Shown here one piece after another: positions 29,045-55,971 of a stretch of 64,000 nucleotides of DNA. How positions within the stretch are numbered: position 1 is the first letter of the stretch; every line of letters starts with the position of its first letter. Below the pieces are notes generated by a model. The model worked only from the letters and a program-made list of their open reading frames with translations. It ran no database searches and had not been told where the DNA came from. A program made the translations under genes and the position numbers. Source of the stretch: an uncultured Gammaproteobacteria bacterium (GTDB lineage Bacteria; Patescibacteriota; Microgenomatia; UBA8517); NCBI GenBank assembly GCA_964427735.1, contig CAYRUS010000001.1, positions 537,373 through 601,372 on the forward strand. Reading direction: 5' to 3'.

Positions 29045-32041
29045 TTATGGTATTGAAATTCCACAATTTCTAACACACTCTCTTGGTACCGTTACTGGTA
29101 CAAATGGTTGAACCATCTGTACTGGCGGGGGCCAAACTGTAGCTGGACCTCCGTTGTTATGGTCACCTAGTGCTCTAAATTCATAGTGATCATGTATATA
29201 GGTTGCTGTACCTGTATGACCCATTATACCTAAAATTGTACCTCTTGGTACAAAATCTCCCTGTTTTAGAGCAATCGAAAATGAACTAAAATGAACATGC
29301 CAGGTCATATAATCTGATCCACCACATTTTCCTGCAGTGCTAACATACAATCCCCCCCAGTTATCTACTGCTTGGTTTAATACAGTTCCATTATGAGTAG
29401 CGATTATATACGCATTATCTTGAGTTTCAGTAGTAAAAGGATCCCAGTGTACATCAATAGCTTCTCTTCTTTCGTGAGAGATAGTCCCTTCAGGACCTTG
29501 ATTAACAATATATTTTTGTCCTTCATTAGCAAGTACAGGCCATCCTACAGGGCAATCCGACGGAGGTTCTCCAATAATAATAGAAGCATATGATATTGCT
29601 TCTTCACCTTTAACTTCTTCTGTATCTGCAATTACACTAAAATTATCAGTCACAACAGAGTCTTCAAAGTTGTTATCAAAATTCACAGAATAAGAAAAAG
29701 AAAATGATTCACCATGGGTAAGAGTAGATGGTGGTTCTGGAATAGTAGGACTTGGTATTGGAGCTTTTAGTGGATCTTGTGTTATTACATATTCATTACC
29801 AAATTGAATATTCGTTAAACTACCTCTTTTGGCTGTAACTGTAATATTGTATGTGACCTCTATAGGTAGGTCACTGTTTTGTGCAATATTTATACTAGCT
29901 ACTTTTTCAATACCAATATATAAAGATTCTTTTACTATGCCGCTTGACGAACCCGCGTAAGTTAGATTTCTAGGAGAAGGGGGAATAACATAGGCTCCTG
30001 TGGTGATGATGTAGATGATAAAAGATACAACCAGTGTAAGTACGGTCAAGGCAATAAATGCTTGAATTAAAGCTTGAGCAATTTCTTTTCCAATTGCAGC
30101 TAAGCCTATAAAGAAAACCCCTGTAGCAGAGGCAATACTACCTGCTACAAAACCTCCATAAACAGCCAGTTGTCCAAAAGTATAAATAACAGCAATAGGG
30201 AGAAAAACTGTTGGTAGTAATACTACACCTGCTAGTAAACCGGCAGCTGTAGCAGCTTTATTTTTCCTCATCCATTGCAGAATTGAGCTTACTATTGGTA
30301 CTTTCTTTAAAAACTTATTTATTAATTTCACACCTTCATAGACAAGTGCGGCTGCCCAACCTATTCCGCCTGTCAATGCCCCTCCAGCAGCCTCTATTCC
30401 TAATCTTGTTGCTATGCCAGCTGCTGCTTTTTTGAATGCTGGTCCAACAATAGACGTAATCTTGCCTTTTAGAGGATTCAAATATCTGGCGATAAATCTG
30501 CTCGATACTTCACCGAATAATTGCCTTCCTAATCCTGTAAAAAAGTTTCCTCTAAATAAATCAGGATGTAAGGTTGCAGCATCGTTATTTGTTACAAATG
30601 ACCCCTCTGCTTGTGTAATTTTTTGCTCATGGACAAACCTTAAATATCTGCCTCTATATGCTGACTTAAAAATTCTGCTTAGTGCTGAATGTCTTTGCTC
30701 AATCAAACTCAAAATACTTCCGTAAGGAGCTATACTTTTAAGGTACTTATCATCTACTCCGTTTTTTCTTGCTTCAGCAATAAAAGCTGCAAGATTTTGA
30801 GGAGTAACACCTCTGGTCCATAAATGAAACGCAGATGTTTCGACAGGATTTTGTTTTGAGAATGCTAATGAACCGGCGTCAGCCAAAAATTGAAAACCTT
30901 TGGTAAAGGCAAGAGGAGCGGTTTTTCCCAGATTAAACCTAGCTGAATCTATAAATTCAAAACCTATTTGTTTTATAGCTTCCTCTTGTTCTTTTTTTAT
31001 TTTTTCTTCATCATTTTCATCTGGTACAACTTCACCAAGTAATTTACTTGCTGCTTCTTCAGCTGTATGTATTTCCTTTGCTATATTGGTATCTAATAAA
31101 GAAATACTGTCTTTGGTAAAAGTTGACGAAACGTTGAACTTAATATTAGGATCTCCTGCAATAGCTCTTGCTATGCTTGATCCGTCTCTTCCTCCTTTGA
31201 CTGTAATCCAAAATGTTCTTAATATTTTTTCTGCCAAAGTGGCAGAAGTAACTCCTCCAGAAAAAGCGATAGTATTATTTAGGTTTACACTAGCTTGTGA
31301 TAAATAACTTTGCACAAAATCGTCTTGAGAAAGGTTTGATGCATCAGAAATTAACTTGTTAATAACTGGTTCATAATCAGATCTTGGAGGAGGGAAGGGT
31401 ACTGCCATAGCAGGAACAAGATAGATTGGTGCTTCTTGAGGTTTAATTGCAGATTGTCTGCCTTCTGTTTTTTCAATAGATTCTATTAATTTTTCAGCTT
31501 CCTTTACTTGTTCACGAATTTCTTCAACTGGAATTGGTGGTTCTGCAGTAAATACAGGTTCTTTTATTTCATGACTTCTTTGCTCAGAGAGAGTTGCGAT
31601 CAATTTTGAGTTTTCTTTTAATTGGAATCTCCAATGCATAATATCGTCTGCAGAAGATCGTGTATCTTCAATTTTTCTCAGTAGCTCTATTCTTTCTTCT
31701 TCAAGTTTCAAAAGATCAGGAGGAATAGTCATTGCAGGATATTCGTCTGGTGTTTCTCCATTTATTAATTTTTCTAAATTCTCATAATATCTAAGAATTG
31801 TTTCAATCCAGACTTTTGGATCTGTATTTTTTGGAGTTTGTGTTAATACTGTTATTTCTGAAAGAAAATTAGCATAAGTAATTTGTTGCGTTTTTTCCCA
31901 GAGTTCTCTATTTTTAGGATCTTCATAAGACTCAGGTACATCTGTATAAACCCTGGTCACATCCGGGTAATAGTACTTTAGACCTTCTAAGAGTTTAAAT
32001 ATTTTGAAATATAAATTTTTGTAGTTGTTACTGGTTGCCAT
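29045..32041 (-). CDS. giant polytopic protein with an N-terminal coiled-coil region, central multi-TM region and a C-terminal M23 (LytM-type) peptidase domain
   Basis: 998 aa. TM helices lie around residues ~560-690. The C-terminus LGIMGHTGTATYIHDHYEF is the M23 G.TG.STG.HLHFE motif. It overlaps virB4 by 14 nt. Confidence 0.7.
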   Translation of the reverse strand: MATSNNYKNLYFKIFKLLEGLKYYYPDVTRVYTDVPESYEDPKNRELWEKTQQITYANFLSEITVLTQTPKNTDPKVWIETILRYYENLEKLINGETPDEYPAMTIPPDLLKLEEERIELLRKIEDTRSSADDIMHWRFQLKENSKLIATLSEQRSHEIKEPVFTAEPPIPVEEIREQVKEAEKLIESIEKTEGRQSAIKPQEAPIYLVPAMAVPFPPPRSDYEPVINKLISDASNLSQDDFVQSYLSQASVNLNNTIAFSGGVTSATLAEKILRTFWITVKGGRDGSSIARAIAGDPNIKFNVSSTFTKDSISLLDTNIAKEIHTAEEAASKLLGEVVPDENDEEKIKKEQEEAIKQIGFEFIDSARFNLGKTAPLAFTKGFQFLADAGSLAFSKQNPVETSAFHLWTRGVTPQNLAAFIAEARKNGVDDKYLKSIAPYGSILSLIEQRHSALSRIFKSAYRGRYLRFVHEQKITQAEGSFVTNNDAATLHPDLFRGNFFTGLGRQLFGEVSSRFIARYLNPLKGKITSIVGPAFKKAAAGIATRLGIEAAGGALTGGIGWAAALVYEGVKLINKFLKKVPIVSSILQWMRKNKAATAAGLLAGVVLLPTVFLPIAVIYTFGQLAVYGGFVAGSIASATGVFFIGLAAIGKEIAQALIQAFIALTVLTLVVSFIIYIITTGAYVIPPSPRNLTYAGSSSGIVKESLYIGIEKVASINIAQNSDLPIEVTYNITVTAKRGSLTNIQFGNEYVITQDPLKAPIPSPTIPEPPSTLTHGESFSFSYSVNFDNNFEDSVVTDNFSVIADTEEVKGEEAISYASIIIGEPPSDCPVGWPVLANEGQKYIVNQGPEGTISHERREAIDVHWDPFTTETQDNAYIIATHNGTVLNQAVDNWGGLYVSTAGKCGGSDYMTWHVHFSSFSIALKQGDFVPRGTILGIMGHTGTATYIHDHYEFRALGDHNNGGPATVWPPPVQMVQPFVPVTVPRECVRNCGISIP

Positions 32042-34457
32042 TTTGGTCGGTATTTAATAAAGCATTAATTTGATTTTGTAAGTCAGTTTCTTTTTGTTCT
32101 GGTGTTTTGTTTGGATTATTAGCTTGTCCAGGCAGAATCACCTCGTTTGTGCCTTGTTTTGGAGGCTGATTAAAAGCAGTTGCCTGCACAATACTCTCTT
32201 TGTTTATTGTATCTTGTATTGGGCTTTCTTTACCTTGATGTTTTTCCGGAGGTTCATTAGTGTTTGTTTGACTAACTGCAACAGTCTCTTGACCTCTGAC
32301 TCCTGTTTCCTCACCGTTGTCATTTGATTGGGTAGTTTGGCTATTTGGGGTTGGCGATTGATCGCTTTCTATTTCCATAAAAGCAGGTTTGATAAGTTCT
32401 TCGTTTTGTTGAGGTTGGTTTGTTTTATTATTGTCACCTATGTAACTAGGTTTTTCATTTCTTTTAGACATTTCACTCGGATTAGTTGTAATAAGTTCGT
32501 GCTCTACATCGCTTGCTACAATCCTAATAGGAGCATGGTGTGGACCTGCGAAAAATATTCCCTCTCCAACGTTTGCTGCAAGAAGCAATTGCTTTTCTCC
32601 TTGTGACAGATAAAAGATTTCGGCAATCCGATCAATTGCAGCAGGAGACTGCTTGAGCAAGAGTTTAAGAGAGGAATTAGTAACAATGGCTTTACCTATG
32701 TCCTGAGACAGAAAATCCTCCACATCCTGTGTAATAGTGGTCAATCCCAGCCAATACTTTCTAGCTCTTTTGACAACAGACCACAGAAATTGAGCAGAAT
32801 CTTCATATCGCATCATATGCCAAGCTTCATCAACAATTAACATTCGTTTTTTAAGGTCCCTTTGGACTCTTGTCCAGATAAAGTCAAGAATAACAAACAT
32901 GGCGATAGGTCTTAGTGCTTCTTGCATATCTTTTACACTAAAAACTGTAAACGGGTTAGAAAGGTCTATATTTGTATGTTTGTCAAATATTCCTACAAAA
33001 GATCCTTTGACAAACTTTTCAATTCTGGCTGCTAAATCTTGTGCTTCAGCAGTTTCCATACCAATCAAGGTTTTGTATAAATCTTCCATCAAAGGTGGTT
33101 CCTTTTTTTGAGTTTCAGGGTCTTGAGTAATTCCTTTTGACTTGTATGTAGCGATTAGCGCTCTATCGAGTAAAGCTTCTTGGGTTGGTGATAGTTGTCC
33201 CATGATAACTTTAAATAATGAGTGGAGAGATAAAATCTTTAAACCTAATTGATTTTCTCCTTCAACATAAACTTGAGATAAATCAAAAGGATTAATTTTT
33301 GATTCAGATGAAAATGAGAAAGAAATATATTCTCCACCTACTGAGTCTGAAAGGTCTTTATACTCAGCTTCGGGGTCAATAATTATAACTTCAGTTCCAA
33401 GCATCAGAGATCTTACTGATTCTAGTTTTACAAAATAGCTTTTACCTCCTCCGGATGTACCAAACACACTCATGTTCGAGTTTTCCATGCTATATCTGTC
33501 AAAAATTATAAAAGAGTCGTTTTGTGGATTTATTCCATAAAGTACACCTTTGTCATTTGACAATTCTGCTGTTGTAAATGGGAAAGTTGTAGCAAGTGAT
33601 GTTGTGTCCATATTTCTATTAACATAGAGTTTGTCTTGCCCCCAAGGGACTGTTGTAATAAATCCTCTTTCCTGATCAAGGGTTATGCTTTCTGCATCAA
33701 CAAGCAAGGATTGCAAAGTCGATTGCACTTGTTTTGTAATATGATTTAGCTCTTCGGGAGAATGGGCAGGAATAGTTATGTAAAGACCCATTTCAAAAAA
33801 ACCCTCTATTCCTTTTACAAGTTGCTCTTGAAGAGCTAATGCGTCTTCTAATTTTGCTTTGGTGGTTGGATTAACTATTTTACCTCTATCAATATCTGTT
33901 GATAATTCGGCTTCCATTTCTGTTATTTTTCTTCTCAAATCATCCAAAACTGTTTTGCCTTCAACAGGATAAATATAAAAAGATGTATTTAAAGAATGGT
34001 TAAAATTTATTAATGGCTCTAACCAGCCTGGATTAACAAAGCGTCTTCGAATATTTGTATAGAGTGTTCGATAGTATTTTTCATTTAATTTTACGTGATC
34101 AAAATCAGTCTCAAATTTTTGAGGAGCAATTACATCCAGAAGATGCATACCTTCTTTAATAGAAAGGATTGGTTTTATTACTTTAGGCTTTTCGTATTCT
34201 TTTATAGTTACTTTTTCCTCACTGTCTTGGGTAAATGCGTGCCTTACAGGTTCTGGAATTATTTTAGATAGAAGTCCTTTTTTTTCTAATTCCAAGTTTT
34301 GGGTGTTTTGTGTTGGTTGAAATTGACCCACCGGTTTGTTTACAGTTTGTCCTTGAAGTTGCGGTATATTTTCTGTTGTCTGTGGAATATTTGGCAGTAT
34401 AACTCCTTGGTTTGAACTCTGAATATTTTTATTTTTTTTGAATAGTGGTAAATCCAT
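32028..34457 (-). CDS. virB4: VirB4/TraE/PrgJ-family type IV secretion ATPase (central + ATPase domains) with an N-terminal Q/N/P-rich linker and a ~150-aa disordered Q/N-rich C-terminal extension
   Basis: Walker A VFGTSGGGKSYF and Walker B MLIVDEAWHMM. The central-domain pattern KYYRTLYT..PGWLEPLINF.. is VirB4-like. Confidence 0.85.
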   Translation of the reverse strand: MDLPLFKKNKNIQSSNQGVILPNIPQTTENIPQLQGQTVNKPVGQFQPTQNTQNLELEKKGLLSKIIPEPVRHAFTQDSEEKVTIKEYEKPKVIKPILSIKEGMHLLDVIAPQKFETDFDHVKLNEKYYRTLYTNIRRRFVNPGWLEPLINFNHSLNTSFYIYPVEGKTVLDDLRRKITEMEAELSTDIDRGKIVNPTTKAKLEDALALQEQLVKGIEGFFEMGLYITIPAHSPEELNHITKQVQSTLQSLLVDAESITLDQERGFITTVPWGQDKLYVNRNMDTTSLATTFPFTTAELSNDKGVLYGINPQNDSFIIFDRYSMENSNMSVFGTSGGGKSYFVKLESVRSLMLGTEVIIIDPEAEYKDLSDSVGGEYISFSFSSESKINPFDLSQVYVEGENQLGLKILSLHSLFKVIMGQLSPTQEALLDRALIATYKSKGITQDPETQKKEPPLMEDLYKTLIGMETAEAQDLAARIEKFVKGSFVGIFDKHTNIDLSNPFTVFSVKDMQEALRPIAMFVILDFIWTRVQRDLKKRMLIVDEAWHMMRYEDSAQFLWSVVKRARKYWLGLTTITQDVEDFLSQDIGKAIVTNSSLKLLLKQSPAAIDRIAEIFYLSQGEKQLLLAANVGEGIFFAGPHHAPIRIVASDVEHELITTNPSEMSKRNEKPSYIGDNNKTNQPQQNEELIKPAFMEIESDQSPTPNSQTTQSNDNGEETGVRGQETVAVSQTNTNEPPEKHQGKESPIQDTINKESIVQATAFNQPPKQGTNEVILPGQANNPNKTPEQKETDLQNQINALLNTDQNGNQ

Positions 34458-35131: not shown

Positions 35132-36109
35132 TTAATTTTTAGCTACCTCTTTTGCTCTTATTGCTATTGGTTGAATAATTGACCCGTCTGCTTCAAAGTT
35201 AATGTCATCAAAAACAAATCCAATCTTTTCTGTTGAAATTGTGTACTTGCCGTTATTAAGTGAAGTTACAATTATAAAATGACCAAGTTGATTGCTTTTA
35301 AGTGCTCTAACTGGTCTTCCTTGTTCATCTTTGATTTCTAGAATTGCTCCTTCAATAATCCCACCGTCTGGCTTCATTACTTGCCCAACAATAGTATTCG
35401 GTCTTTCAGGGGGAACAGGAGGTGCAGCCTCTGGTGAAAATTCAGCTTTTTGAACATCCTTCTTTCCCTCACTTTTGATTGTAGGTTCTATAGGGACGCT
35501 AGGAATTTCTGTTTTAACAGTCTTTTCGATAACAATTGGTGGTGTTTGATTTAATATTCTTGGTTTAATCTCTTGTGGCGTTTTAAGAACTGGTTCATTT
35601 TCAGGAATATTAATTATTTTATTTTTTTCTGCTTCAGGTTGAGTTGCTGAAATTGGTTGAGTGCCGTGCAAAAGCTGTGATATTTGTGATAAAAATGCTT
35701 GTTCGCCTGATTCCAAATTTGAGAGAAAAGAAGGACTGTGAGGTTTTGCAGGTTGAGAATCTTGTTTTTGTTCTTTTTGGGCTGTGGTTACATCATCCTG
35801 TACAAAAAAGACAGGGGCTTTTTCGTATTTTGTCCAGACAAATTCAGTGGGAGAATAAATAGTTCTAAAAAAAGCTACTATCCACGCAGAAAGAGGTCTT
35901 TCTTTAAACGGTAAAAACGCCAGAGCTATGCCAAGGAGGGCAAAAAAGATAATAAATGGCCATTTAATAAAAGCAGGTAAACCGCTTGCATAAAAAAGCA
36001 AAGCAACGAGAAATCCTCCGGCCAGCTGGAAAAACTGCTTTAAGGTCATGTCTCCTACAAGCCTGAACTGGTAAGAGCTTATTTGTTGTGGTACTGGATG
36101 TTGATTCAT
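35132..36109 (-). CDS. VirB3/PrgI-like two-TM membrane protein fused to a Pro-rich linker and a C-terminal carboxypeptidase-regulatory-like beta-sandwich domain
   Basis: 325 aa. The N-terminal TM hairpin (LAGGFLVALLFYASGLPAFIKWPFIIFFALLGIALAFLPF) sits directly upstream of virB4, as PrgI/VirB3 genes do. The C-terminus GQVMKPDGGIIEGAILEIKDEQGRPVRALKSNQLGHFII..NGKYTI fits a prealbumin-like fold. Confidence 0.45.
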   Translation of the reverse strand: MNQHPVPQQISSYQFRLVGDMTLKQFFQLAGGFLVALLFYASGLPAFIKWPFIIFFALLGIALAFLPFKERPLSAWIVAFFRTIYSPTEFVWTKYEKAPVFFVQDDVTTAQKEQKQDSQPAKPHSPSFLSNLESGEQAFLSQISQLLHGTQPISATQPEAEKNKIINIPENEPVLKTPQEIKPRILNQTPPIVIEKTVKTEIPSVPIEPTIKSEGKKDVQKAEFSPEAAPPVPPERPNTIVGQVMKPDGGIIEGAILEIKDEQGRPVRALKSNQLGHFIIVTSLNNGKYTISTEKIGFVFDDINFEADGSIIQPIAIRAKEVAKN

Positions 36110-39141: not shown

Positions 39142-40809
39142 CTATCTTATATATCTAATAGTTCTTAACAGATTTCCTAACCAGTGAGGACCAAATCTCT
39201 CCATTCTGCTTACTCCAAGTGAAGTTGCTCCTCTGGTTAAAGTATCAGCAGGACCTACTGCTTGTCCTATGGCAGCCCCATAATTGAAAGACTGACCGCT
39301 TATGATAGCTTTAACTAATTCATTCGACCTATGAATTATTAAAAATATTACAAGTGATACAATAAAGAATAGCAAGGCAATACCAGTTTCTCCTTCGGAG
39401 TATAAGAGAGGAGGCCACCCCGGAACAAAGTCTTGTCCTGTAAAAACATTGGTTAATGGTACTCCAAAAATAAAAGCTCCAATAGGATCTACTCCCGCCG
39501 AGCCAATTGCTAATTTTGCATACTGTGCAGACATTCCAAGAAAAATGAAGGATAATACAAAAAGGAATCCTGTTACCACAAACACAGCTAAATTAGAAGA
39601 ATACTGTTTTACCCAGTTACCAAAACCAAGACTAGGAATTACAACACCAAGGGTAATCAAAAAAGGAGCAAAAATTGTCAACAATACAATGGTTGCATAT
39701 GCTTTAGCTAGACCCCATACAATCTTTACTAAATAAATTACTATTACAGCCATTATAATAAGTAAGAAAACAAGACCAATAATGAGTGCTATTGCTGTTG
39801 TTGGTGCAGCACTGGCAGCAGCTATAACTAAAAGAGTAGCGACAGCTGTAGCCAATGCTGCTCCTATTGCTCCAAAAAAAACTATTACCAACAGTAGTCC
39901 TACAAAAGTTGCTAATACTAGGAATATTATTATTAGACCAAAAATGCCAGAATGAAATGTGGGATTGCTTGAACTACCAAAACCAGGGCCTTGTGTCATC
40001 ACTTCAAACAAATATGCTGGATTGGATTGGTTACCTGAAAAAGATCTTACAAAGCTACTTAATAGTAAGCTCAGTAGACCTATAACTACATACATGAGAT
40101 CTATCAAAAGACCTGCTATAGCATAGGAAAAGGTGACGAGTATCAGTGCAATAAATATTTTAGGAAGTGCGGACTGAATACTTACCACAGTTTGAGGAGA
40201 AATTTTAATTCTAAACATAATCATAAAGGCAAAGATAATTATAATAATAACGAATAGGACATAAGAAAGATCGCGAGAAGCTTTCCATAAAGTCTGTATA
40301 GGGTCTAGTGCTGTTTTGTATCCAAAACCTTCCTGTGCATTAGCCTCTGGTATTATTGAAAATTTATTTATAGTTTTATCCAGATATGATAATGCTGATA
40401 AGCTTCTGTTAGTGTTAAAAACACTTGCAACTAAAGATTTATCCGATTGCAAATTTGTGAAAGGTTCTTGAGATGGAGCTTGTGCCAGCTTTAAACAATT
40501 TCCTACATCACTAGAGGAAATACATCTCATAACATCAGCTCCCAAGACTTGGGCAAAAGGCCAGCCAATAACGCTCCAGATTATCCAATTTACTTGAGCA
40601 TATGTATACCTCTCCCCAAAAATTTCACCTGAAGGATCGTCAAAAACTTTAGAATAAAATTGATCGGGATGTTGGTTATACCAAGGCTGAAGAGCATATG
40701 AAGATTTTGGTACGTAAACTGCAAGGGAGGTAAAAAGATAGAGTGCAATAAGTACGGATAGTGCTAGTTTTTTCAGGACAGTCATTTTAATCAGTTTAGT
40801 TAATTTCAT
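39142..40809 (-). CDS. VirB6/TrbL-like polytopic membrane protein
   Basis: 555 aa. It has a signal/TM segment, a ~150-aa extracytoplasmic N-domain, then at least 8 hydrophobic helices rich in small residues (AAASAAPTTAIALIIGLVFLLIIMAVIVIYL...). This architecture is typical of VirB6/TcpH. Confidence 0.55.
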   Translation of the reverse strand: MKLTKLIKMTVLKKLALSVLIALYLFTSLAVYVPKSSYALQPWYNQHPDQFYSKVFDDPSGEIFGERYTYAQVNWIIWSVIGWPFAQVLGADVMRCISSSDVGNCLKLAQAPSQEPFTNLQSDKSLVASVFNTNRSLSALSYLDKTINKFSIIPEANAQEGFGYKTALDPIQTLWKASRDLSYVLFVIIIIIFAFMIMFRIKISPQTVVSIQSALPKIFIALILVTFSYAIAGLLIDLMYVVIGLLSLLLSSFVRSFSGNQSNPAYLFEVMTQGPGFGSSSNPTFHSGIFGLIIIFLVLATFVGLLLVIVFFGAIGAALATAVATLLVIAAASAAPTTAIALIIGLVFLLIIMAVIVIYLVKIVWGLAKAYATIVLLTIFAPFLITLGVVIPSLGFGNWVKQYSSNLAVFVVTGFLFVLSFIFLGMSAQYAKLAIGSAGVDPIGAFIFGVPLTNVFTGQDFVPGWPPLLYSEGETGIALLFFIVSLVIFLIIHRSNELVKAIISGQSFNYGAAIGQAVGPADTLTRGATSLGVSRMERFGPHWLGNLLRTIRYIR

Positions 40810-41405: not shown

Positions 41406-43850
41406 TTAATGGATACCACATGCCTTTGCTCCGGCCCAAGGACCGAAGCCACTTTCATTATATATTTTTTTAGCATATTGTAGGTTGTTATTAGGATCTC
41501 TAAACCAATCTAAACATATTTGTCTTAGTTGATCATATCCATCATTTATTGCGCAAGAACTCCCTGAGTAAGTGAAAGCATCTGGGCATGTTATATTGTC
41601 CGGATAGCCAGCAGCTGTTATTTGCGCACGGAGACTATCTGGAACATCACTAGATCGAGACGGGTGAGCTAGTAAATTTATTTGAAACAACCCTACGCTG
41701 TAATCAAGAGTTTTCCCCCTTAGACAATTGTCATTCAAGGCGAATTGGTACCCAGAGCTTTCTTTATTACATACTTGAGAAAATGCTGTGGCAAGATTCA
41801 TATCGTCATTAAAATGAGGTAAGAGATTGTTTATACTACAAGGCTCACTATCGTCTGTTATAGCTTGGCAAGTACCGCTAGGAACAACTCCAGAAGGATA
41901 TCCCGGTGCGTAAGAAACTTTTAATTCTTGTGGACGTAGGGCGTCTTGGATTCCTCTTTGAAAATATTCTTGAATTCCACCTAAGTGGGGAATAAAGATA
42001 TCTGCCCTTTCACCAGTTCTCTTACTTTCCGGGTCACCTGCTTGAATACTAATATTTCCACTCCCACCTTCATCTTCGTATATAGCCGTAGTTACACCGG
42101 GTAGGTCTTTGATTTCTATGTTTAGTCCATTTGGACCGAACTTTGGCATAAATCGTTTAAAAACAGATGAAGCTCCAGAAACCAGCCTTTGCCAATTTTC
42201 CTGAGCTTTTGGAGTACGAGTGTAGACACCAACTGCTGTATAGGCTTCTTTTTCGCATGTTCCAGGGTCAGTAGTGCAAGCTGCTCTACAAACGCCTGGT
42301 GTGCCTGCTGGTCCAGTACCAGGATTCATACAATCGTCGTAACAGGCTTCATCAAGACCTGCTGGACCAAAGTCACAGCTAAATTCTGTTGTAAAAGTCA
42401 CATCAGCTGTGATTGGGTCGTTGCCATATTCTCCAAATAAATCGTCTCCGCTGTTCCAGCGTACATCCAGCAAATCACAATGGTCGTTTCTGCTGTAAAG
42501 ATCAAAATTACCATGATTACCATCAAAGGTTACTGCCTCATCAGCTGCATAGGTTTGCTGAAGTAGGGAGGCAAGCTCAGCACTTTCTTCCATATGAGAA
42601 AAATAAAGATTATCGACATCTTTATCAACATCTATGCTTATATTGCTAACATTGACTTCACTATTAGGTTGTAAGGTGTGTGACAAATCAGAATCAATAA
42701 CAACTTGACCAATTCTATCTTCTGTGGAACCCTTATTCCCCGACGGTCCAGCAAGGGGAATATATGGGTAAAGATTTGCCCAAAAATCAGGTTTTAATGG
42801 ATTATTAGCACAGAACAAAAACGTTTTTCCTCCTACAACAGGAACAAAATTAGGAACATTAACAGATTCACAAGAATCACCTCGCCATTCACGATATTTT
42901 TCCCAATATTCTTCAAAGCTTTTACCGTCATCTGCAAACTCACTTTCAAAGGGAGGTATATGATTTTCCCATTCTTTTAACCTTTTTTCTTGAACGAGAT
43001 AATCTGTAAGAGCATTTCTTTCATCGTAGCACGGTACAGGTATCCCACCTATTTCACCAAGTAAAGGTACATCAATCCCTAGGGTACAGCCTACAATCTG
43101 ATTGTGCCTATCTTGACCTGCACTTTTAATGGTCTCAGCCCTAGCTCGAAACTGGATTTCCTGAGGTAGTAATTTGTTGAGTGGACCACTATAATTTACA
43201 AGTCTATCTTCTGATTCTTTTGTTAGTATATTTTTAATATCAACTGGGATTTTTATTGGGGGACCAGGAGGAATTTGTAGAATGTTAGGAATTTCAATAA
43301 ATTCTATTTTTTTCTCATAATCCAGATATTCTCCCTCAGCCTTAAAGACATCTCCTTGCAAATACCAGCTTACATATTCGTTCATTCTTTGTGCGGAAGT
43401 AAGGTTTTCTGGTGTAGGGTTGCCTTTGTTTTGAGAATTTTCAACTAGTTGGGTATTTCCCATAATGGGAAGTTCAGCATGCAAAAGGTTGATAGCAAAG
43501 CTAGCTTCTTCCTCAAATCTGTAAGTACAGTGTTGTGAACCGTCTGCTTTTATAGTGCATGTTCCTCCTTCTGGAGTTACGTTGTAATTTTTTTTGATAA
43601 TCAGGTCATTACCACAGTAAATTTCTGCTTCTTGGATTTCTTCATCACAAGGACTTGCTTGGTAAGGTCTTAGTGAATTAAATTCTTCATCTCTAATATC
43701 ATTACAGGGGACATAAGGGTTGGGAACCTGTGCAAAGACATTGGTTGCATAGCCAAGGTAAACTAGCGTAAGAACCAGGAAGAAATCTATAATTAATAAA
43801 AACTTACCAAGATTTATATTCATTTTAGCGTTTAGTAGTTGTGGCAGCAT
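41406..43850 (-). CDS. secreted Cys-rich protein with a C-terminal lytic transglycosylase (SLT/lysozyme-like) domain; VirB1-like
   Basis: 814 aa with an N-terminal signal/TM. The C-terminus ..NKESSGYQFALNDN....DYSVGLFQINLLAH.. matches the SLT ES...GLMQ core. Many Cys pairs suggest disulfides. Confidence 0.6.
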   Translation of the reverse strand: MLPQLLNAKMNINLGKFLLIIDFFLVLTLVYLGYATNVFAQVPNPYVPCNDIRDEEFNSLRPYQASPCDEEIQEAEIYCGNDLIIKKNYNVTPEGGTCTIKADGSQHCTYRFEEEASFAINLLHAELPIMGNTQLVENSQNKGNPTPENLTSAQRMNEYVSWYLQGDVFKAEGEYLDYEKKIEFIEIPNILQIPPGPPIKIPVDIKNILTKESEDRLVNYSGPLNKLLPQEIQFRARAETIKSAGQDRHNQIVGCTLGIDVPLLGEIGGIPVPCYDERNALTDYLVQEKRLKEWENHIPPFESEFADDGKSFEEYWEKYREWRGDSCESVNVPNFVPVVGGKTFLFCANNPLKPDFWANLYPYIPLAGPSGNKGSTEDRIGQVVIDSDLSHTLQPNSEVNVSNISIDVDKDVDNLYFSHMEESAELASLLQQTYAADEAVTFDGNHGNFDLYSRNDHCDLLDVRWNSGDDLFGEYGNDPITADVTFTTEFSCDFGPAGLDEACYDDCMNPGTGPAGTPGVCRAACTTDPGTCEKEAYTAVGVYTRTPKAQENWQRLVSGASSVFKRFMPKFGPNGLNIEIKDLPGVTTAIYEDEGGSGNISIQAGDPESKRTGERADIFIPHLGGIQEYFQRGIQDALRPQELKVSYAPGYPSGVVPSGTCQAITDDSEPCSINNLLPHFNDDMNLATAFSQVCNKESSGYQFALNDNCLRGKTLDYSVGLFQINLLAHPSRSSDVPDSLRAQITAAGYPDNITCPDAFTYSGSSCAINDGYDQLRQICLDWFRDPNNNLQYAKKIYNESGFGPWAGAKACGIH

Positions 43851-43968: not shown

Positions 43969-44268
43969 TTATGGTAGTGTTATCTTGAACTCAGTTACAG
44001 GTGCTCCTGTCAAAGTTTCTATTAGCTGCATTATCAAAAAAGACATGATTACCAAAAATAGCCCACCAAGTGAATAGGTAATTGTTTTTTTAGCTGCTTC
44101 TGCTTGCTGAGGGTTTGTTCCTGAGGTCAAAAATTTTAATCCGCCGACAAGGAGCATTATGAAGGCTGCTATTGCACCAAAACCTAGTAAAACAGAAATG
44201 ATATTCCCAAAGATAATTTCAAGATCTTCTATTTTTGCCGGTTGGGCATTAGGAATCTTTGGATTCAT
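43969..44268 (-). CDS. VirB2/TrbC-like pilin candidate (paralogue 8)
   Basis: 99 aa. It has TM1 and a ..LTSGTNPQQAEAAKKTITYSLGGL.. loop, then TM2. It shares the S-x-G-D/N-P/K...A...I...L.G motif with the 45952-48482 array. Confidence 0.45.
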   Translation of the reverse strand: MNPKIPNAQPAKIEDLEIIFGNIISVLLGFGAIAAFIMLLVGGLKFLTSGTNPQQAEAAKKTITYSLGGLFLVIMSFLIMQLIETLTGAPVTEFKITLP

Positions 44269-44363
44269 AGTTTTATTTTATAATAGGAGAGAAAAAAGGA
44301 CAAACATTTGTCGTGATTGTATTTCATTCTTTATACAGTTTAAACTTGATTTATAATATATAA

Positions 44364-45875
44364 ATGAAATCAAGTGATTTTTTAAGTAAATTGTCCCTGT
44401 TTAAATATAGTTTTACATTCGTTTTTTTCTTAATTGTAATTTTTTCAGTTTTTTTTATAAAAATTTATAACACAACAGACCCGGATTTTGGATGGCATTT
44501 AAGAACAGGGGAAATAATAATAAAAGAAGGTATACCAAAAACAGATCCGTTTTCATATACAATGCCAAATTTCCCTTATGTTGATCACGCTTGGCTTACA
44601 GATGTTTTTATCGTAGTCATTTATTCTTCGTTTGGAAAGTTAGGTTTAACAATCGTTTTTTCGTTATTAATGTTTGTTATATTGATTTTGGCTGTGACGC
44701 TATTTGGAAATTCAGGTTTGTACAATGCTGTTAGAAGCAGTGACAATATTAAACTCTTATCATACTTAATCTCTTTACTTTTGGGTTCGGCTGTTTTAGT
44801 TTACTATGCATCTGTTCGTACGCATCTCTTTAGTTGGTTGTTTTTTTTAATTGTAGCTAAGATCTTACTGAATAAAAGGATTTGGAATAAATACAAGTAT
44901 TTTATTCCAGTTGTTTTTTTATTGTGGGCAAACTTACATGGAGGATTTTTAGCTGGATTTCTTCTTGTAGGAATTTGTTTAGTTGTTAATTTTATTTATG
45001 ATAGGAATGCTTTTAAAGAGTTATTAATATTGTTTGTTGCTTCAATATTGTTTACTTTATTAAATCCTTATTTTATTGATTTATGGCGCGAGGTGCTAAC
45101 TACTGTAGCAGATAATGATTTAAAGAAATATATAGCAGAATGGAAATCTTTAGTTTTTACACCAATTCTTAGTTTTGGTGCCCTTTTCGGTCTGACTGTC
45201 GGTTTTTTAAGCAAATATAGTAAACAAATAGAAGTGTCTCCAATTATTTTATTTTTGGTTTTTACGATATTGGCTATTTCATCTGTAAAAAATTTACCGT
45301 TTTGGGTTGTAATTACTATGCCTATTTTAGTAACTTGCCTAAACTATTTAGTGCTTGAGATTGAACAAGTCAAATATGCAAAAAAAAGATTGTTATACTT
45401 TTTAAACATTCTGCTTGTGATATCTTTGGTTGTGTTTTTACTTGAAACCAAAATTGCTTTAAATCGAATAAAACAGATAAGCATTACCAAACATACTCAG
45501 GAGGTTGGTTTTATTGATTTTTTAAAAACTAGGAACAGTCAGGGAAATATATTTAATGAATATGGTCTTGGGGGCTATCTTATTTGGAAGTACCCAGAAA
45601 AAAGAGTGTTTATTGATGGAAGAATGGCCATTTGGGAAATGCAAGATTCAACACATAATTATGAAAGCGATGCTTTTGATAAATATATTAATATTATAAA
45701 AGGGAAAGTAGACTACAAAGAAGCTTTTGAAAAATATGATATTGATACTGTTGTTTGGATAAACAAGAAGTATACTTCATCGGATCCGAAGCAATTGTTT
45801 ATTGAGAAATTAATAAAAGATGGATGGTTATTAGTATACGAAGATAATTATGTGATTATTTACTCAAAGCAATGA
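44364..45875 (+). CDS. polytopic membrane protein, GT-C-like (possible glycosyl/oligosaccharyl transferase)
   Basis: 503 aa with at least 10 TM helices. The first extracytoplasmic loop is DPDFGWHLRTGEIIIKEGIPKTDPFSY (Asp/Glu-rich, as in GT-C first loops). It is flanked on both sides by pilin-like genes. Confidence 0.35.
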   Translation: MKSSDFLSKLSLFKYSFTFVFFLIVIFSVFFIKIYNTTDPDFGWHLRTGEIIIKEGIPKTDPFSYTMPNFPYVDHAWLTDVFIVVIYSSFGKLGLTIVFSLLMFVILILAVTLFGNSGLYNAVRSSDNIKLLSYLISLLLGSAVLVYYASVRTHLFSWLFFLIVAKILLNKRIWNKYKYFIPVVFLLWANLHGGFLAGFLLVGICLVVNFIYDRNAFKELLILFVASILFTLLNPYFIDLWREVLTTVADNDLKKYIAEWKSLVFTPILSFGALFGLTVGFLSKYSKQIEVSPIILFLVFTILAISSVKNLPFWVVITMPILVTCLNYLVLEIEQVKYAKKRLLYFLNILLVISLVVFLLETKIALNRIKQISITKHTQEVGFIDFLKTRNSQGNIFNEYGLGGYLIWKYPEKRVFIDGRMAIWEMQDSTHNYESDAFDKYINIIKGKVDYKEAFEKYDIDTVVWINKKYTSSDPKQLFIEKLIKDGWLLVYEDNYVIIYSKQ

Positions 45876-45951
45876 TTAGTATCGTGTTACTGCACTTAAG
45901 ACACAATATTAACATTCAACAGAACTTATCTTAAATTAGAGGTGTAAGAAG

Positions 45952-46338
45952 TTATATAGAAGGGAGATTTAGATCTAATATATTTATATGGAAGAATGTG
46001 TTTATTAAACTTACAATTGCATAAGCAGAGAAAACTATAACAAGTCCAATGAGTGCTGATGTTATCTGACTTCTAGCACCTTCCATTTTACCTTTGTCTC
46101 CAGCTGAAAGAATCCATCTGATACCTCCAACAACAAGCATAACGAAGAAAATAACTGCTGCTAAAATAAATAGTATAGTAACAATAGTACTTACTATACC
46201 AGTTGCTTCAAAACCTACAAGATTGGTGAAAGTGCTATCATCGTCAGGTCTAAGAGTTACATCTGATTGAGCTTTTGCAACAGGAACCAAAAAGAAAGCA
46301 TTTGTAATTGCTACATTAATTTTGTCTGTTAATTTCAT
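45952..46338 (-). CDS. VirB2/TrbC-like pilin candidate (paralogue 1 of tandem array)
   Basis: 128 aa, two hydrophobic segments separated by the ..LSAGDKGKMEGARSQITSALIGL.. loop. Confidence 0.45.
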   Translation of the reverse strand: MKLTDKINVAITNAFFLVPVAKAQSDVTLRPDDDSTFTNLVGFEATGIVSTIVTILFILAAVIFFVMLVVGGIRWILSAGDKGKMEGARSQITSALIGLVIVFSAYAIVSLINTFFHINILDLNLPSI

Positions 46339-46350
46339 ATTAATAATTTA

Positions 46351-46683
46351 TTATTGAATTCTTAAGGCACCTATGTCAAGTACTAAAATATCAATGCCAA
46401 AAAGTGTTTCGACTAAGGATATTATAGCATAAACTGAAAAAAGAGCAATAACCCCTATAATTGCATGTGTAATTGTTTTTTGGGCTGATTCTAGTTTCAT
46501 TTTATCTCCACTTGAAGATATCCATCCAATAGCTCCTTTTACAAACATAAAAAAGAAAACTATAGACCCTGCTATAAATGCTAAAGTTATAAATGTGGAT
46601 ATCATTCTATCAATATACTTAACACCGGGTTCAAATCTAACACTAGGGTCAAGCAAAGGATTTTGTAAAACAAACATTGTCAT
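46351..46683 (-). CDS. VirB2/TrbC-like pilin candidate (paralogue 2)
   Basis: 110 aa with the ..SSSGDKMKLESAQKTITHAIIGV.. loop. Confidence 0.45.
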   Translation of the reverse strand: MTMFVLQNPLLDPSVRFEPGVKYIDRMISTFITLAFIAGSIVFFFMFVKGAIGWISSSGDKMKLESAQKTITHAIIGVIALFSVYAIISLVETLFGIDILVLDIGALRIQ

Positions 46684-46692
46684 ATATTTATA

Positions 46693-47061
46693 TTATCTTA
46701 GATTTCTAATTGCTGGTGCAAGATCAAGAATGTACGGTATACCAATTAGCTCACCTACGAGATCAAGAATAAATGTTGCCAGTATAACTACTAATAAGCC
46801 AATTAAAGCTGTGGATATATTTTTCCATGCGTTTGCTACTTGTTGTTTGTCTCCACTAGAAGAAATTAAAGCGTATGCTCCGGTGATTAATTTGAAAACA
46901 AACCATATAATGGCAACAATTGTAAGTACGCCAATAGCTAAAGTTAATGTCTGCTCAAAAATAGTAGGTGCTTGTGGAAATAGTTTTCCTTCTAAACCTA
47001 GCGGGCCCTCTCCTCGAAACCCTCCGGGTGGGTGAATGTTTATTTGTGCAAGTTTGTTCAT
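46693..47061 (-). CDS. VirB2/TrbC-like pilin candidate (paralogue 3)
   Basis: 122 aa with an MNKLAQIN leader and the ..SSSGDKQQVANAWKNISTALIGL.. loop. Confidence 0.45.
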   Translation of the reverse strand: MNKLAQINIHPPGGFRGEGPLGLEGKLFPQAPTIFEQTLTLAIGVLTIVAIIWFVFKLITGAYALISSSGDKQQVANAWKNISTALIGLLVVILATFILDLVGELIGIPYILDLAPAIRNLR

Positions 47062-47062
47062 A

Positions 47063-47395
47063 TTAGATAGTTGGGATTACCGGTGTTAACAAAGCATCGT
47101 AATCTCCAAAAATAAGTCTTCCAAAAAGTGCTGCAAGTACAAATGATCCTGCGACTACAGTTAGTCCTAGTGCAGTCTGCCAGATTTTTGCCCAGGCCCC
47201 TGCTACTTTTTTAGGATCATCTCCAGCTGATAAAAAGGCATATCCTGCAAAAATGAAATTAAATAAAGCATAAATACTGGCAACAACTATTAAAGTCTGT
47301 ACCATAATATTTAATAATATTCCAATTGCACCACCTTGGATTGAACCAAATCGGGCTAGAGGAGTAGGTACAGGTATATTTCCAAAAACATTCAT
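47063..47395 (-). CDS. VirB2/TrbC-like pilin candidate (paralogue 4)
   Basis: 110 aa with the ..LSAGDDPKKVAGAWAKIWQTALGL.. loop. Confidence 0.45.
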   Translation of the reverse strand: MNVFGNIPVPTPLARFGSIQGGAIGILLNIMVQTLIVVASIYALFNFIFAGYAFLSAGDDPKKVAGAWAKIWQTALGLTVVAGSFVLAALFGRLIFGDYDALLTPVIPTI

Positions 47396-47396
47396 A

Positions 47397-47750
47397 TTAA
47401 ATTCCTGGTGCAGTTATAAAATTAACACCTATTATTATTTCTATTATGCGGATAATCCAAAAAGCTGTAAATACCAGAAAAAATCCGATTACGGCATAAG
47501 TCATAGTTGCCTTGCCTTTGGCTGCTCGTTGCGGATCTTGGTTTCCAGCACCCATAATTATACTTAACCCACCAAAAATAAACAAGAAAAAGACTATAAC
47601 TCCTGATATTACTAAGGCAGATTGAACTATAATTCCTACAATTTCTCCAATTCCATAAGTAAGACCAGGTCCTCTGGCAATACCTCTTGGTCCTGCACCG
47701 ACTCTAAAAAATTTATCACCAATATCAAAAGCAACAGCAATCTTGTTCAT
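47397..47750 (-). CDS. VirB2/TrbC-like pilin candidate (paralogue 5)
   Basis: 117 aa with an MNKIA leader and the ..MGAGNQDPQRAAKGKATMTYAVIGF.. loop. Confidence 0.45.
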   Translation of the reverse strand: MNKIAVAFDIGDKFFRVGAGPRGIARGPGLTYGIGEIVGIIVQSALVISGVIVFFLFIFGGLSIIMGAGNQDPQRAAKGKATMTYAVIGFFLVFTAFWIIRIIEIIIGVNFITAPGI

Positions 47751-47752
47751 TT

Positions 47753-48088
47753 TTAAAAGATACTTATAATCGAATCTATCTTAAATACTATTCCTATAAT
47801 CTGAATTATCCAATATGCCGCAAAAACCACTAAAAATCCCAAACCCGCGTTTTTTATTTTGGTTTGAGCCATTTGTACTTTTTTTGGATCACCTGCTGAT
47901 GTCATTAATTGAAAACCTGCAGAGAGAAGAAACAGAAGAAGGATAATCCCCGCTGTAGCAAAGATATATGGAAGAAGTGCAGCAATGATTCCAGCAATAT
48001 TGAGAGAGTTGTCAATTGTAATCTTTCCACCGCCAACGTGGTCAGTTCTATAAATCAGGTCAAAGTTAATCTGTGCTAGCTTGTTCAT
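47753..48088 (-). CDS. VirB2/TrbC-like pilin candidate (paralogue 6)
   Basis: 111 aa with an MNKLAQIN leader and the ..TSAGDPKKVQMAQTKIKNAGLGF.. loop. Confidence 0.45.
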   Translation of the reverse strand: MNKLAQINFDLIYRTDHVGGGKITIDNSLNIAGIIAALLPYIFATAGIILLLFLLSAGFQLMTSAGDPKKVQMAQTKIKNAGLGFLVVFAAYWIIQIIGIVFKIDSIISIF

Positions 48089-48092
48089 ATTA

Positions 48093-48482
48093 TTATCCCA
48101 ATGGTATTCCTAGGATATTTACACCTAGGTATTGTAAAACAAAAACACTAAAAATAAGAAGTAAAAGTCCTGAAATTGCAGAAAACAAAAGTTCTTGTCC
48201 TGCTCTAAGCCTATCTGGAACACCTTGGGATGTAGTAATCATAATTCCTGCATAGACTATTAATATAAAAGCTATTCCACCAGCAATACCGACAGCCCAA
48301 CGAAAGACCCAAACAATAAATGTATCTGTTCCTGCTAGTACAGGTATACAACCTATTGCTGTATCAATGCCAGTATCGCCACCACCAGGGGTAATCGGGG
48401 GATTACATAATTGTGCAAAAACAGGCAAGGGAAAGCTTAAAAAACTTAATATAATAGCAAGTACAAAAAAAGTTTTTCTCAT
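48093..48482 (-). CDS. VirB2/TrbC-like pilin candidate (paralogue 7, most divergent; signal peptide + Cys-containing N-region)
   Basis: 129 aa with an N-terminal signal (FVLAIILSFLSFPLPVFA) and the ..TTSQGVPDRLRAGQELLFSAISGL.. loop. Confidence 0.4.
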   Translation of the reverse strand: MRKTFFVLAIILSFLSFPLPVFAQLCNPPITPGGGDTGIDTAIGCIPVLAGTDTFIVWVFRWAVGIAGGIAFILIVYAGIMITTSQGVPDRLRAGQELLFSAISGLLLLIFSVFVLQYLGVNILGIPLG

Positions 48483-53412: not shown

Positions 53413-53841
53413 ATGAAAATTATAAATAAAAAAGCAAAATTTCTATATTCTCTTGAAGAAGAGTATGAAGCAGGTTTGGTTCTGACAGGGGCTGAAGTCA
53501 GAGCTGTAAAAAACGGTAGAGCAAACATTTCTCAAGCTGTAGCTAGAATTATGGATACAGAAGCATATCTTATTAATGCAGATATTGTTGTTGATAATAT
53601 CCCAGGATACCAATCAAAACGAATAAGAAAGCTTCTTCTTCATAAAGATCAGATAATATCAATAAAGTCCAAAATTAAGGCAAAAAAATTGACTTTAGTG
53701 CCTCTTTCATTGTATACTAAGGGCCGTTTGGTAAAGGTTAAATTAGCCTTAGGTAAGGAAAAAAGACGTTATCAAAAAAGAGAAGCAATACGACAACGAG
53801 ACATAGAGCGCGAGATGAAAAGAGAACTTAAAAATAGATAA
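53413..53841 (+). CDS. smpB: SsrA-binding protein SmpB
   Basis: 142 aa. ...GLVLTGAEVRAVKNGRANISQA... and the basic C-terminal tail match SmpB. It sits directly upstream of the tmRNA. Confidence 0.9.
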   Translation: MKIINKKAKFLYSLEEEYEAGLVLTGAEVRAVKNGRANISQAVARIMDTEAYLINADIVVDNIPGYQSKRIRKLLLHKDQIISIKSKIKAKKLTLVPLSLYTKGRLVKVKLALGKEKRRYQKREAIRQRDIEREMKRELKNR

Positions 53842-53902
53842 GTAAGTCTAAACTACTAAGCTCTAAAAATTATTTAGATTTTGGTAATTTAGAGTTTAAG
53901 CT

Positions 53903-54274
53903 GGGGACGCATTAGGTTTCGACGAGATGGCTCTTTTAAAGATTGCAAGCAGACGGATGTCAGTATACGTCTTTAATCACACTGGCAAACACAAAAAGCG
54001 TCACTAAAAATAGCGCTCCTAAATACGCTGTAGCTTACGCGTAAAAAGGTGTCTTGTTGATTACGTTTTCCGACCGAATCATCAGGGCATAAACCTAGTC
54101 GGAACGCACACAAGTCTTGGTGAGCTTTGCAAGCTTGTGCTAAGAATTTTAAAGCTTGTCTTTTCTCGTCCTTCCGATGGGTAAGAGTAAAGCACTACAA
54201 AATATCGGATAAGCTTGTAGAAATCTTTATTGAGAAAATTTCGGACGAGGGTTCGACTCCCTCCGTCTCCACCA
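53903..54274 (+). ncRNA. ssrA: tmRNA (ssrA), standard one-piece
   Basis: It starts GGGGACGCATTAGGTTTCGACG and ends ...GGACGAGGGTTCGACTCCCTCCGTCTCCACCA (tRNA-Ala-like acceptor/T-arm with encoded CCA). The candidate tag reading frame is GCA AAC ACA AAA AGC GTC ACT AAA AAT AGC GCT CCT AAA TAC GCT GTA GCT TAC GCG TAA, giving (A)NTKSVTKNSAPKYAVAYA*. Boundaries are +/- 2 nt. Confidence 0.85.
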
Positions 54275-55010: not shown

Positions 55011-55098
55011 CGGTGAGGGTGGGATTCGAACCCACGGTAGCCTAAAAGACTACATTGGTTTTCAAGACCAACCCGATCGTCCGCTCTGGCACCTCACC
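55011..55098 (-). tRNA. tRNA-Ser (anticodon UGA), type II with long variable arm
   Basis: Reverse complement GGTGAGGTGCCAGAGCGGACGATCGGGTTGGTCTTGAAAACCAATGTAGTCTTTTAGGCTACCGTGGGTTCGAATCCCACCCTCACCG. The anticodon loop is CTTGAAA. Boundaries are +/- 2 nt. Confidence 0.8.
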
Positions 55099-55154
55099 TA
55101 AAAACACAATTTTGAATATATATAAAAGTACAGTTGTATATCGCCTGAAAATAA

Positions 55155-55915: not shown

Positions 55916-55971
55916 ATAGCCTCGATATTTAAACACAGAAAAGGTATAATTAGCCAAGATTTTGATGTAAT

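Follow-up and report, generated by a model that had tools for sequence, protein, structure and literature searches.

A 64,000-nucleotide (nt) stretch of chromosome from an uncultured bacterium of the Microgenomatia (GenBank assembly GCA_964427735.1, contig CAYRUS010000001.1, positions 537,373 to 601,372; hereafter, the window) carries eight minus-strand genes, pil1 to pil8, encoding small two-helix proteins that resemble the pilins of type IV secretion systems (T4SSs). Comparison with 80 related loci suggests that the eight genes are ancient, non-interchangeable orthologous classes kept in a fixed order, and that diversification is concentrated in the ectodomain of one of them, class 8. We consider it probable, at roughly 70%, that each of the eight proteins is a non-redundant subunit of an envelope-spanning or extracellular T4SS structure built of helical-hairpin proteins, in which class 8 would present a variable ectodomain. 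The array is an instance of the T4SS pilin arrays already published for Patescibacteria, and the phenomenon is therefore known. What sequence comparison adds is the set of eight fixed, ordered classes, the localization of variability to class 8, and a gap in the detection of class 5.

Eight pilin-like genes with a shared two-helix plan

An earlier note, made from the letters of the window alone, had listed eight minus-strand open reading frames (ORFs) as VirB2/TrbC-like T4SS pilin candidates. All eight are present, at 99 to 129 amino acids (aa), with the coordinates given below in array order; bit scores are those against the Pfam family PF18895 (T4SS_pilin), whose gathering cutoff is 26.6 bits.

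48093..48482, minus strand: pil8 (class 8), 129 aa, first gene of the array; 21.7 bits
47753..48088, minus strand: pil7 (class 7), 111 aa, polar N-terminal tail MNKLAQIN, GDPKK loop; 33.0 bits
47397..47750, minus strand: pil6 (class 6), 117 aa, polar N-terminal tail MNKIA; 32.4 bits
47063..47395, minus strand: pil5 (class 5), 110 aa; 12.3 bits, E 0.19
46693..47061, minus strand: pil4 (class 4), 122 aa, N-terminal tail MNKLAQIN with p.GGF.G.GPLG, GGDK loop; 30.7 bits
46351..46683, minus strand: pil3 (class 3), 110 aa, GGDK loop; 26.0 bits against the cutoff of 26.6
45952..46338, minus strand: pil2 (class 2), 128 aa, signal-peptide-like N terminus (..VAKA/Q); 42.1 bits
43969..44268, minus strand: pil1 (class 1), 99 aa, last pilin of the ancestral array, C-terminal TGxPVTEF; 36.2 bits

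A MAFFT alignment and a hydropathy scan bear out the shared two-helix architecture in all eight proteins. In each, helices 1 and 2 are joined by a brief, polar, Lys-rich loop and flanked by a variable tail at the N terminus and a short one at the C terminus. An AlphaFold2 (AF2) model of pil2 is a hairpin with helices at residues 48-80 and 82-116 and a predicted local distance difference test (pLDDT) score of ~80 in the core. The loop motif proposed earlier is kept loosely, as S-[SAG]-G-[DN]-[PK] followed by Lys-rich residues, and the only invariant residue in the alignment of the eight is a Gly in helix 2. The MNKLAQIN and MNKIA starts do occur in three proteins (pil4, pil7, and pil6). Of the N-terminal leader ascribed to every member, however, the hydropathy scan recovers a classical hydrophobic Sec signal peptide in pil8 and pil2 only, and the other six begin with polar tails. 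The tight tandem packing of the seven genes from pil2 to pil8 also holds, although the gaps measure 12, 9, 1, 1, 2, and 4 nt rather than the reported 2 to 12. Pairwise identity among the eight proteins ranges from 20 to 47% (mean, 31%). A hidden Markov model (HMM) built from them finds no ninth paralogue when run on the ORFs of all six frames of the window; beyond the eight, the best match has an E value of 0.018.

The eight genes as orthologous classes across 80 loci

We searched species-representative genomes with the pil5 class as the anchor and obtained 80 species-level loci from Woesebacteria, Microgenomates, Shapirobacteria, Gottesmanbacteria, and Amesbacteria. Pilin ORFs in these loci were called with the family HMM and labeled by the best-matching paralogue of the window. 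Exactly half of the loci (40/80) have the complete one-strand order 8-7-6-5-4-3-2-1, and most of the others are truncations of this order at contig ends or contain extra copies of class 8 or class 2. A few distant lineages have only three to six detectable copies.

When classes were set by position alone, using the 45 loci with exactly eight copies together with the window, a protein and its nearest neighbor in another locus shared their positional class in 354 of 368 comparisons (96%). Concordance by class was 46/46 for classes 1 and 2, 45/46 for class 7, and 43/46 for classes 3 and 6. Matches in the databases likewise sort into one-to-one groups by similarity. Identity is 47 to 62% within a class (62% for class 2), compared with ~32% between the paralogues of one locus. 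The claim that the paralogues are not a recent duplication is strongly borne out. Each copy has orthologues in dozens of other genomes.

The degree of constraint can be gauged against neighboring genes. In the loci that also carry SmpB, the pilin classes are 43 to 57% identical to their counterparts in the window, while the corresponding values are 50% for SmpB, 51% for a SpoIID-domain protein, 33% for an SLT-like protein, and 35% for a protein with eight transmembrane (TM) segments. The pilins therefore evolve at a rate like that of housekeeping genes. Each class also has motifs of its own, including in the N-terminal tails, such as AGYAF.SAGDDPKK..GAWAKIWQT in class 5, GGIRWI.SGGDKAQTE.ARNQITAALVGLVIVFAAWAI in class 2, and GGF.G.GPLG in class 4. 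As judged from these sequence comparisons, the eight genes appear to be ancient, fixed, ordered orthologous classes that are not interchangeable.

Class 5 deserves separate mention, as it is among the most conserved classes and yet the most divergent from the Pfam model. It has 37 invariant columns over 14 orthologues, and close orthologues are 66 to 73% identical. At an E value of 0.19, class 5 falls short of the HMM criteria of the published census (PMC12102498). Censuses that rely on the PF18895 and PF04956 HMMs probably count class 5 as non-pilin, and published array sizes are probably underestimated.

Variability in the class 8 ectodomain

The first gene of the array, pil8, encodes a protein of a different build, with a Sec-type signal peptide (..PVFA/Q), a short ectodomain of ~25 residues with two Cys, a TAIGCIP junction, and a two-helix anchor. 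Signal-peptide-like starts are found in 33 of 46 class 8 proteins and in 0 to 6 of 46 for classes 1 to 7, according to a heuristic hydropathy test rather than SignalP. The T-A-I-G-C-I-P junction and the hairpin anchor are conserved across class 8. Mean global identity between species is 65% for the anchor and 20% for the ectodomain, whose length ranges from 10 to 303 aa. Class 8 ectodomains are rich in Cys, with a median of 8 per protein and 7.9 per 100 aa. A Pfam scan of the long ectodomains returned no domain beyond one below-threshold match to BACON. Diversification thus appears, at the level of sequence, to be concentrated in the class 8 ectodomain and not spread over the eight paralogues.

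Some genomes have two or three class 8 copies, with ectodomains of 300 to 450 aa (among L035:8127-9650, L062:2478-6224, L069:5833-8758, and L030:6704-9043). One genome encodes a class 7-type hairpin behind a 400-aa Cys-rich domain, and locus L062 encodes a 1,248-aa protein that ends in a class 8 hairpin. An apparent fusion in L062 between the 814-aa SLT-like protein and class 8 was set aside as too weak, since the similarity is confined to a 48-residue patch (E 1.5e-4).

Relationship to known pilin families

The likeness among the eight goes well past anything expected by chance. A Pfam scan places five of the eight proteins (pil1, pil2, pil4, pil6, and pil7) above the PF18895 gathering score. 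The other three fall below it as graded divergent members: pil3 just misses the cutoff, pil8 lies further off, and pil5 is the most remote. All three match an HMM of all eight proteins, themselves included, at E values of 1e-32 or less. PF18895 is the top Pfam match for seven of the eight and ranks second for pil5, behind a chance-level match to MgtC. Three of five long class 8 orthologues that were scanned pass the PF18895 threshold, at 29.5 to 38.1 bits. A profile search of a large protein collection retrieved 961 homologues, many with PF18895, from Woesebacteria, Shapirobacteria, and other Microgenomatia, one of which is named "pilin" by NCBI. The label of T4SS pilin candidates given in the earlier note agrees with the PF18895 assignment, with the T4SS gene context described below, and with the literature (PMC12102498, PMC10633639, PMC12857230).

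The relationship to canonical VirB2 and TrbC is more distant. We assembled a reference profile from eight annotated plasmid genes, gathered through a tblastn search of plasmids with VirB2. An hhalign comparison between this VirB2/TrbC profile and a 121-sequence profile of our family aligned 61 co-linear columns spanning helix 1, the loop, and helix 2 (P 0.0015). A Pfam match to CagC is below threshold (E 0.17), and a Foldseek search against PDB returned nothing under an E value of 4. The fold is a generic helical hairpin. Two array members of Southlakia match both PF18895 and PF04956 (TrbC) (PMC10633639, Table S2), and these double-matching members bridge the two families. Support for homology to canonical TrbC/VirB2 is weak.

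A second likeness points toward monoderm systems. The NCBIfam model NF045849, for the Mbov_0395 family pilin-like conjugal transfer protein of Mycoplasma integrative and conjugative elements (ICEs), is an 80-residue two-helix profile that aligns almost end to end with seven of our proteins (E 6e-8 to 1e-3). Every score is below its equivalog cutoff of 40 bits, the best being that of pil1 at 32.2 bits. The sequence matches indicate that the pilins are probably related to NF045849 without being members of it, and they suggest that hairpins of the PF18895 type may also be found in an MPF-FATA-type system of monoderms. A published suggestion holds that the pilins of Patescibacteria were possibly co-opted from diderm T4SSs. 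The likeness to NF045849 bears on this question of origin, that is, on arrival with the MPF-FATA machinery versus co-option from diderm systems.

Type IV pilins (PilA/ComGC) were considered and rejected. The class III prepilin leader G/[FM]..E is absent from all eight proteins, each has two TM helices, and none matches a type IV pilus family in Pfam.

Genomic context of the array

The array is the promoter-proximal block of a co-directional chromosomal T4SS cluster that adjoins dnaN/dnaA and the replication origin. The chromosome has a G+C content of 34%, and the window is a segment of 32 to 38% G+C that includes rnpA, yidC, dnaA (25233-26618), and dnaN (26949-28049). The genes within and downstream of the array are as follows.

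44364..45875, plus strand: 503-aa polytopic membrane protein with ~10 TM segments, between pil2 and pil1; no Pfam or NCBIfam family
41406..43850, minus strand: SLT-like protein, 814 aa, secreted, 24 Cys, directly downstream of pil1; SLT_3 (PF18896) 22.6 bits, below threshold
39142..40809, minus strand: 555-aa protein with ~8 TM segments and no family match, downstream of the SLT-like gene
36753-39134, plus strand: 793-aa ORF of unknown family, inside the T4SS cluster; present in 4/80 loci
36170-36544, minus strand: 23S rRNA intervening-sequence protein gene (PF05635, 77 bits), inside the T4SS cluster; present in 4/80 loci
35132..36109, minus strand: PrgI/VirB3-like membrane protein; PF12666 (PrgI) 23.8 bits against a cutoff of 27; syntenic in 28 loci
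32028..34457, minus strand: VirB4-like T4SS ATPase; TraG P-loop (PF19044) 107.9 bits, AAA_10 47.2 bits, Walker A GTSGGGKS
29045..32041, minus strand: 998-aa membrane protein with a C-terminal M23 peptidase (PF01551, 38.2 bits) and three TM-like segments; last large gene before dnaN

The VirB4-like and PrgI-like genes lie on the strand of the array, 8 to 14 kb downstream of it, and this synteny is kept in related loci. Two more genes between dnaN and the array, for proteins of 222 aa (h222) and 173 aa, share that strand. The conserved arrangement, which is seen in 28 to 60 loci, runs SmpB, h627, bPH, SpoIID (on the opposite strand), pil8 to pil1, SLT, h555, PrgI, h222, and VirB4. The 814-aa protein has a signal anchor, a lysozyme-like C-terminal domain, and a large N-terminal region without a known domain; it is kept in the same synteny in 42 loci at ~33% identity among relatives and is, from its sequence, a candidate VirB1-like cell wall hydrolase. 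The 555-aa protein (h555) occupies the same position in 60 of 80 loci and is a candidate for a divergent channel subunit of the VirB6/PrgH type. In a published census, VirB6/PrgH proteins are scarce in Microgenomatia (PMC12102498). Pfam and NCBIfam scans of the cluster genes detected no coupling protein or relaxase domain and gave no informative match for the 503-, 555-, 173-, 222-, 332-, and 793-aa neighbors.

The earlier description of seven genes in tandem plus one holds for the layout of the window, but this layout is a derived state. The 503-aa protein has no homologue in any related locus (0/80), and in nearly all of these loci pil1 comes straight after pil2; the low G+C content of the gene (29.6%, versus 34 to 38% around it) is consistent with an insertion. 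A near-identical Logan contig (SRR7082976) carries the same split layout. The 503-aa gene thus looks like an insertion, specific to this lineage, that split an ancestral tandem array of eight genes, and it appears to lie outside the system. The 23S rRNA intervening-sequence protein gene and the 793-aa ORF are probably insertions as well.

Upstream, the SpoIID-domain gene diverges from pil8 across a spacer of 54 nt, which contains a candidate TG-extended -10 element (48541-48513, minus strand). The best sigma-70-like match of the region, TTGACA-18-AATAAT (11/12; 46379-46350, minus strand), lies in the pil3-pil2 junction and ends 12 nt upstream of the pil2 start. Promoter-like sites are barely enriched over shuffled sequences in this AT-rich DNA, and we draw no operon boundaries from them. 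A terminator scan likewise found no more sites than in shuffled sequences and none that was intergenic. SmpB (53413-54274 region, plus strand) is directly followed by a full-length transfer-messenger RNA gene (133 bits), and four tRNA genes lie at 55011-58041; this is ordinary housekeeping content. The block SmpB-h627-bPH-SpoIID is syntenic with the pilin array in ~40 related genomes. The records of many related loci bear the title "uncultured Gammaproteobacteria bacterium," and those of a few name Alphaproteobacteria, Clostridia, or Nevskiaceae (L001, L003-L005, and others). Given the Microgenomatia-type array and synteny, such titles look like mislabeled taxonomy.

A probable heteromeric T4SS structure and its alternatives

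Because the classes are individually conserved, occur in a fixed order, and carry private motifs, non-redundant parts of a heteromeric structure are the most likely explanation for the array. Each protein would enter the membrane as a hairpin of two helices whose Lys-rich loop faces the cytoplasm and whose termini both lie outside, as the positive-inside rule predicts. A machine powered by the VirB4-like ATPase could then pull the subunits out to form a tube, either envelope-spanning or extracellular, that touches the host cell. The tube itself might be formed by one or a few of the classes, for instance, with others serving at the base, as adaptors, or at the tip, and class 8 would be the best candidate for a host-recognizing module exposed at the surface or tip. 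The heteropolymeric fiber that the earlier note had proposed as one option is favored by the fixed classes and order, although it is unproven. The essentiality of a related array fits this picture: in Southlakia, each of SEML1_0014-0019 was scored as growth-defect or essential by transposon sequencing (Tn-seq), with 11 to 15 input insertions falling to about zero (PMC10633639, Table S1).

Several observations weigh against this interpretation. The best direct match to PF04956 is that of pil2, at an E value of 0.076 and 13.7 bits against a cutoff of 27.9, and the hhalign comparison with VirB2/TrbC carries a probability of only 17%. A profile search of PDB sequences matched no solved pilin chain, giving chance matches only (E of 0.035 or more). 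Six of the eight proteins have no recognizable signal peptide, unlike VirB2, TraA, and TrbC. The Tn-seq essentiality of single Southlakia paralogues may reflect polar effects within the operon, and operon constraints alone could conserve gene order without any co-assembly. In no Patescibacterium has a filament or tube of these proteins been seen. No pilus has been demonstrated so far, and it has been raised only as a possibility (PMC12857230).

The absence of an observed pilus and of signal peptides in most classes would also be expected if the hairpins made no pilus at all and were membrane-embedded or wall-spanning channel and stalk parts of a monoderm-type T4SS without an extracellular filament. 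The below-threshold NF045849 matches of seven proteins (E 6e-8 to 1e-3) lean the same way, as does the MPF-FATA ancestry of the T4SS, Gram-positive T4SSs being generally without pili (PMC12102498, PMC10633639). These matches all fall under the curated 40 bits, however, and eight distinct conserved classes, one with a secreted Cys-rich ectodomain, suggest an exposed structure. A Saccharimonadia parasite, moreover, does build a tube ~9 nm wide and 60 to 70 nm long with a density at its tip, of unknown composition (PMC11880426). We regard a system without a filament as unlikely.

The earlier note had offered antigenic or host-range diversification as its other option, and a related proposal was made by Quinonero-Coronel et al. 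by analogy with Bartonella and Anaplasma (PMC12102498): the paralogues would be interchangeable major pilins, expressed alternately or together, that vary the filament surface or widen the host range. The high divergence of the paralogues, the changes in copy number at deep distances (additional copies of class 8 or class 2 and, in Gottesmanbacteria, a smaller number that can be detected), and the hypervariable class 8 ectodomain are all in keeping with it. What speaks against it is the pattern among loci, with one-to-one orthologous classes in the same order over 40 species-level loci, divergence at a housekeeping rate (43 to 57%, compared with 50% for SmpB), and private invariant motifs in each class. 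In addition, the window contains no recent duplicates, pseudogenes, or cassette copies, and every Southlakia array member was scored essential and is apparently not redundant. Diversification is consequently disfavored for the set of paralogues, for which we think it has little chance of being correct, and survives in the narrower form of a hypervariable class 8 ectodomain.

It is highly improbable that the proteins have nothing to do with pilins, being holins, phage membrane proteins, or other small membrane proteins that look like pilins only through hydrophobic composition. A generic helical-hairpin fold and the weak likeness to canonical VirB2 are what such an origin would predict, but several members exceed the PF18895 threshold and the Southlakia homologues match both PF18895 and PF04956. 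The array is kept in strict synteny with VirB4, PrgI, and SLT and not with phage genes, and its other neighbors are housekeeping genes. We looked for the holin and phage matches that the earlier note had named as evidence for another identity and found no holin or annotated PHROG match; the sole PHROGs match was between pil5 and one family of unknown function (E 0.0036).

The heteromeric T4SS structure that we favor invites comparison with one seen by cryo-electron tomography. The saccharimonad Mycosynbacter amalyticus has a "lance," a tube 8.98 nm wide that extends ~70 nm from the inner membrane and bears a barb density at its tip, and a conduit of 8.6 nm by 61 nm joins the parasite to its host (PMC11880426). 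It is possible, though speculative and on balance doubtful, that the eight classes co-assemble into one heteromeric VirB2-type tube of defined architecture, with tube, base, and adaptor subunits and a class 8 tip bearing a hypervariable, Cys-rich domain that binds the host, and that this tube corresponds to the lance or conduit. Conjugative pili are of a width similar to that of the lance (~9 nm). If the correspondence were true, the tube would mark the first case of a VirB2-like conduit with multiple subunits and of a pilus-like T4SS structure in a monoderm, and a single swappable ectodomain would encode most of the host specificity.

Comparison with known systems

Arrays of this kind have been described before. 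Quinonero-Coronel et al. (2025) surveyed 3,035 Patescibacteria genomes with PF18895 and PF04956 and reported 441 arrays of 2 to 11 VirB2-like genes in 383 Patescibacteria assemblies, with enrichment in Microgenomatia (PMC12102498). The array in the window resembles the published ones in its PF18895 content and tandem, divergent paralogues of ~25 to 30% identity (PMC12102498, PMC10633639, PMC12857230), as well as in its chromosomal MPF-FATA-related T4SS cluster near dnaA, its interruption by a non-pilin gene, which some of the published arrays also show, and its Microgenomatia host. Wang et al. (2023) described an essential six-pilin array in Southlakia (PMC10633639); unlike SEML1_0014-0019 of Southlakia epibionticum, which has six members, the array here has eight. 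The 2025 study suggests, again by the Bartonella/Anaplasma analogy, that the versatility of the arrays may aid adaptation to different hosts (PMC12102498), in contrast to the fixed and ordered classes that we find across Microgenomatia. Neither orthologous classes nor gene order came up in text searches of that paper (PMC12102498).

Multiple tandem VirB2-like genes in a T4SS that does not serve conjugation are also shared with the trwL copies of the Bartonella Trw system and the virB2 families of Anaplasma and Ehrlichia (cited in PMC12102498). Those families are regarded as lineage-specific amplifications tied to antigenic variation or host cell specificity, whereas the copies here are ancient, one-to-one orthologous, fixed in order, and under constraint like that of housekeeping genes. 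The canonical pilins (Agrobacterium tumefaciens VirB2, RP4 TrbC, and F TraA) are small two-helix hairpins with a short basic loop, a plan that ours appear to share, and like ours they are encoded upstream of or beside genes for a VirB1-like hydrolase and for VirB3/VirB4. They differ in being encoded by one gene per system rather than eight and in carrying a long signal peptide that is cleaved off, a feature absent from six of our proteins. The loop in our family is ~7 residues longer, the PF04956 threshold is not reached, and the host is a monoderm without an outer membrane. The NF045849 protein of Mycoplasma ICEs likewise has a two-helix profile, and its system is a monoderm conjugation system of the MPF-FATA type. 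By analogy, the minor and major subunit sets of type IV pili and of the pseudopili of type II secretion systems also consist of several conserved, non-redundant tandem subunits, one with a larger exposed domain. Their fold and biogenesis are unrelated, however, with one TM helix rather than two, and the array here has no PilD, PilB, or PilC context.

Implications for Patescibacteria

A large part of bacterial diversity falls within the Patescibacteria, whose members live in attachment to other microbes. In the sole system tested, epibiotic growth requires the T4SS, the pilin array included. The fixed, ordered classes turn the notion of versatility into a structural model, with a tube subunit, base and tip subunits, and a class 8 ectodomain that would set host range. 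The class 5 gap indicates that HMM-based censuses probably undercount array members, and the pilin-like protein of Mycoplasma ICEs emerges as a possible monoderm relative of the pilins of Patescibacteria.

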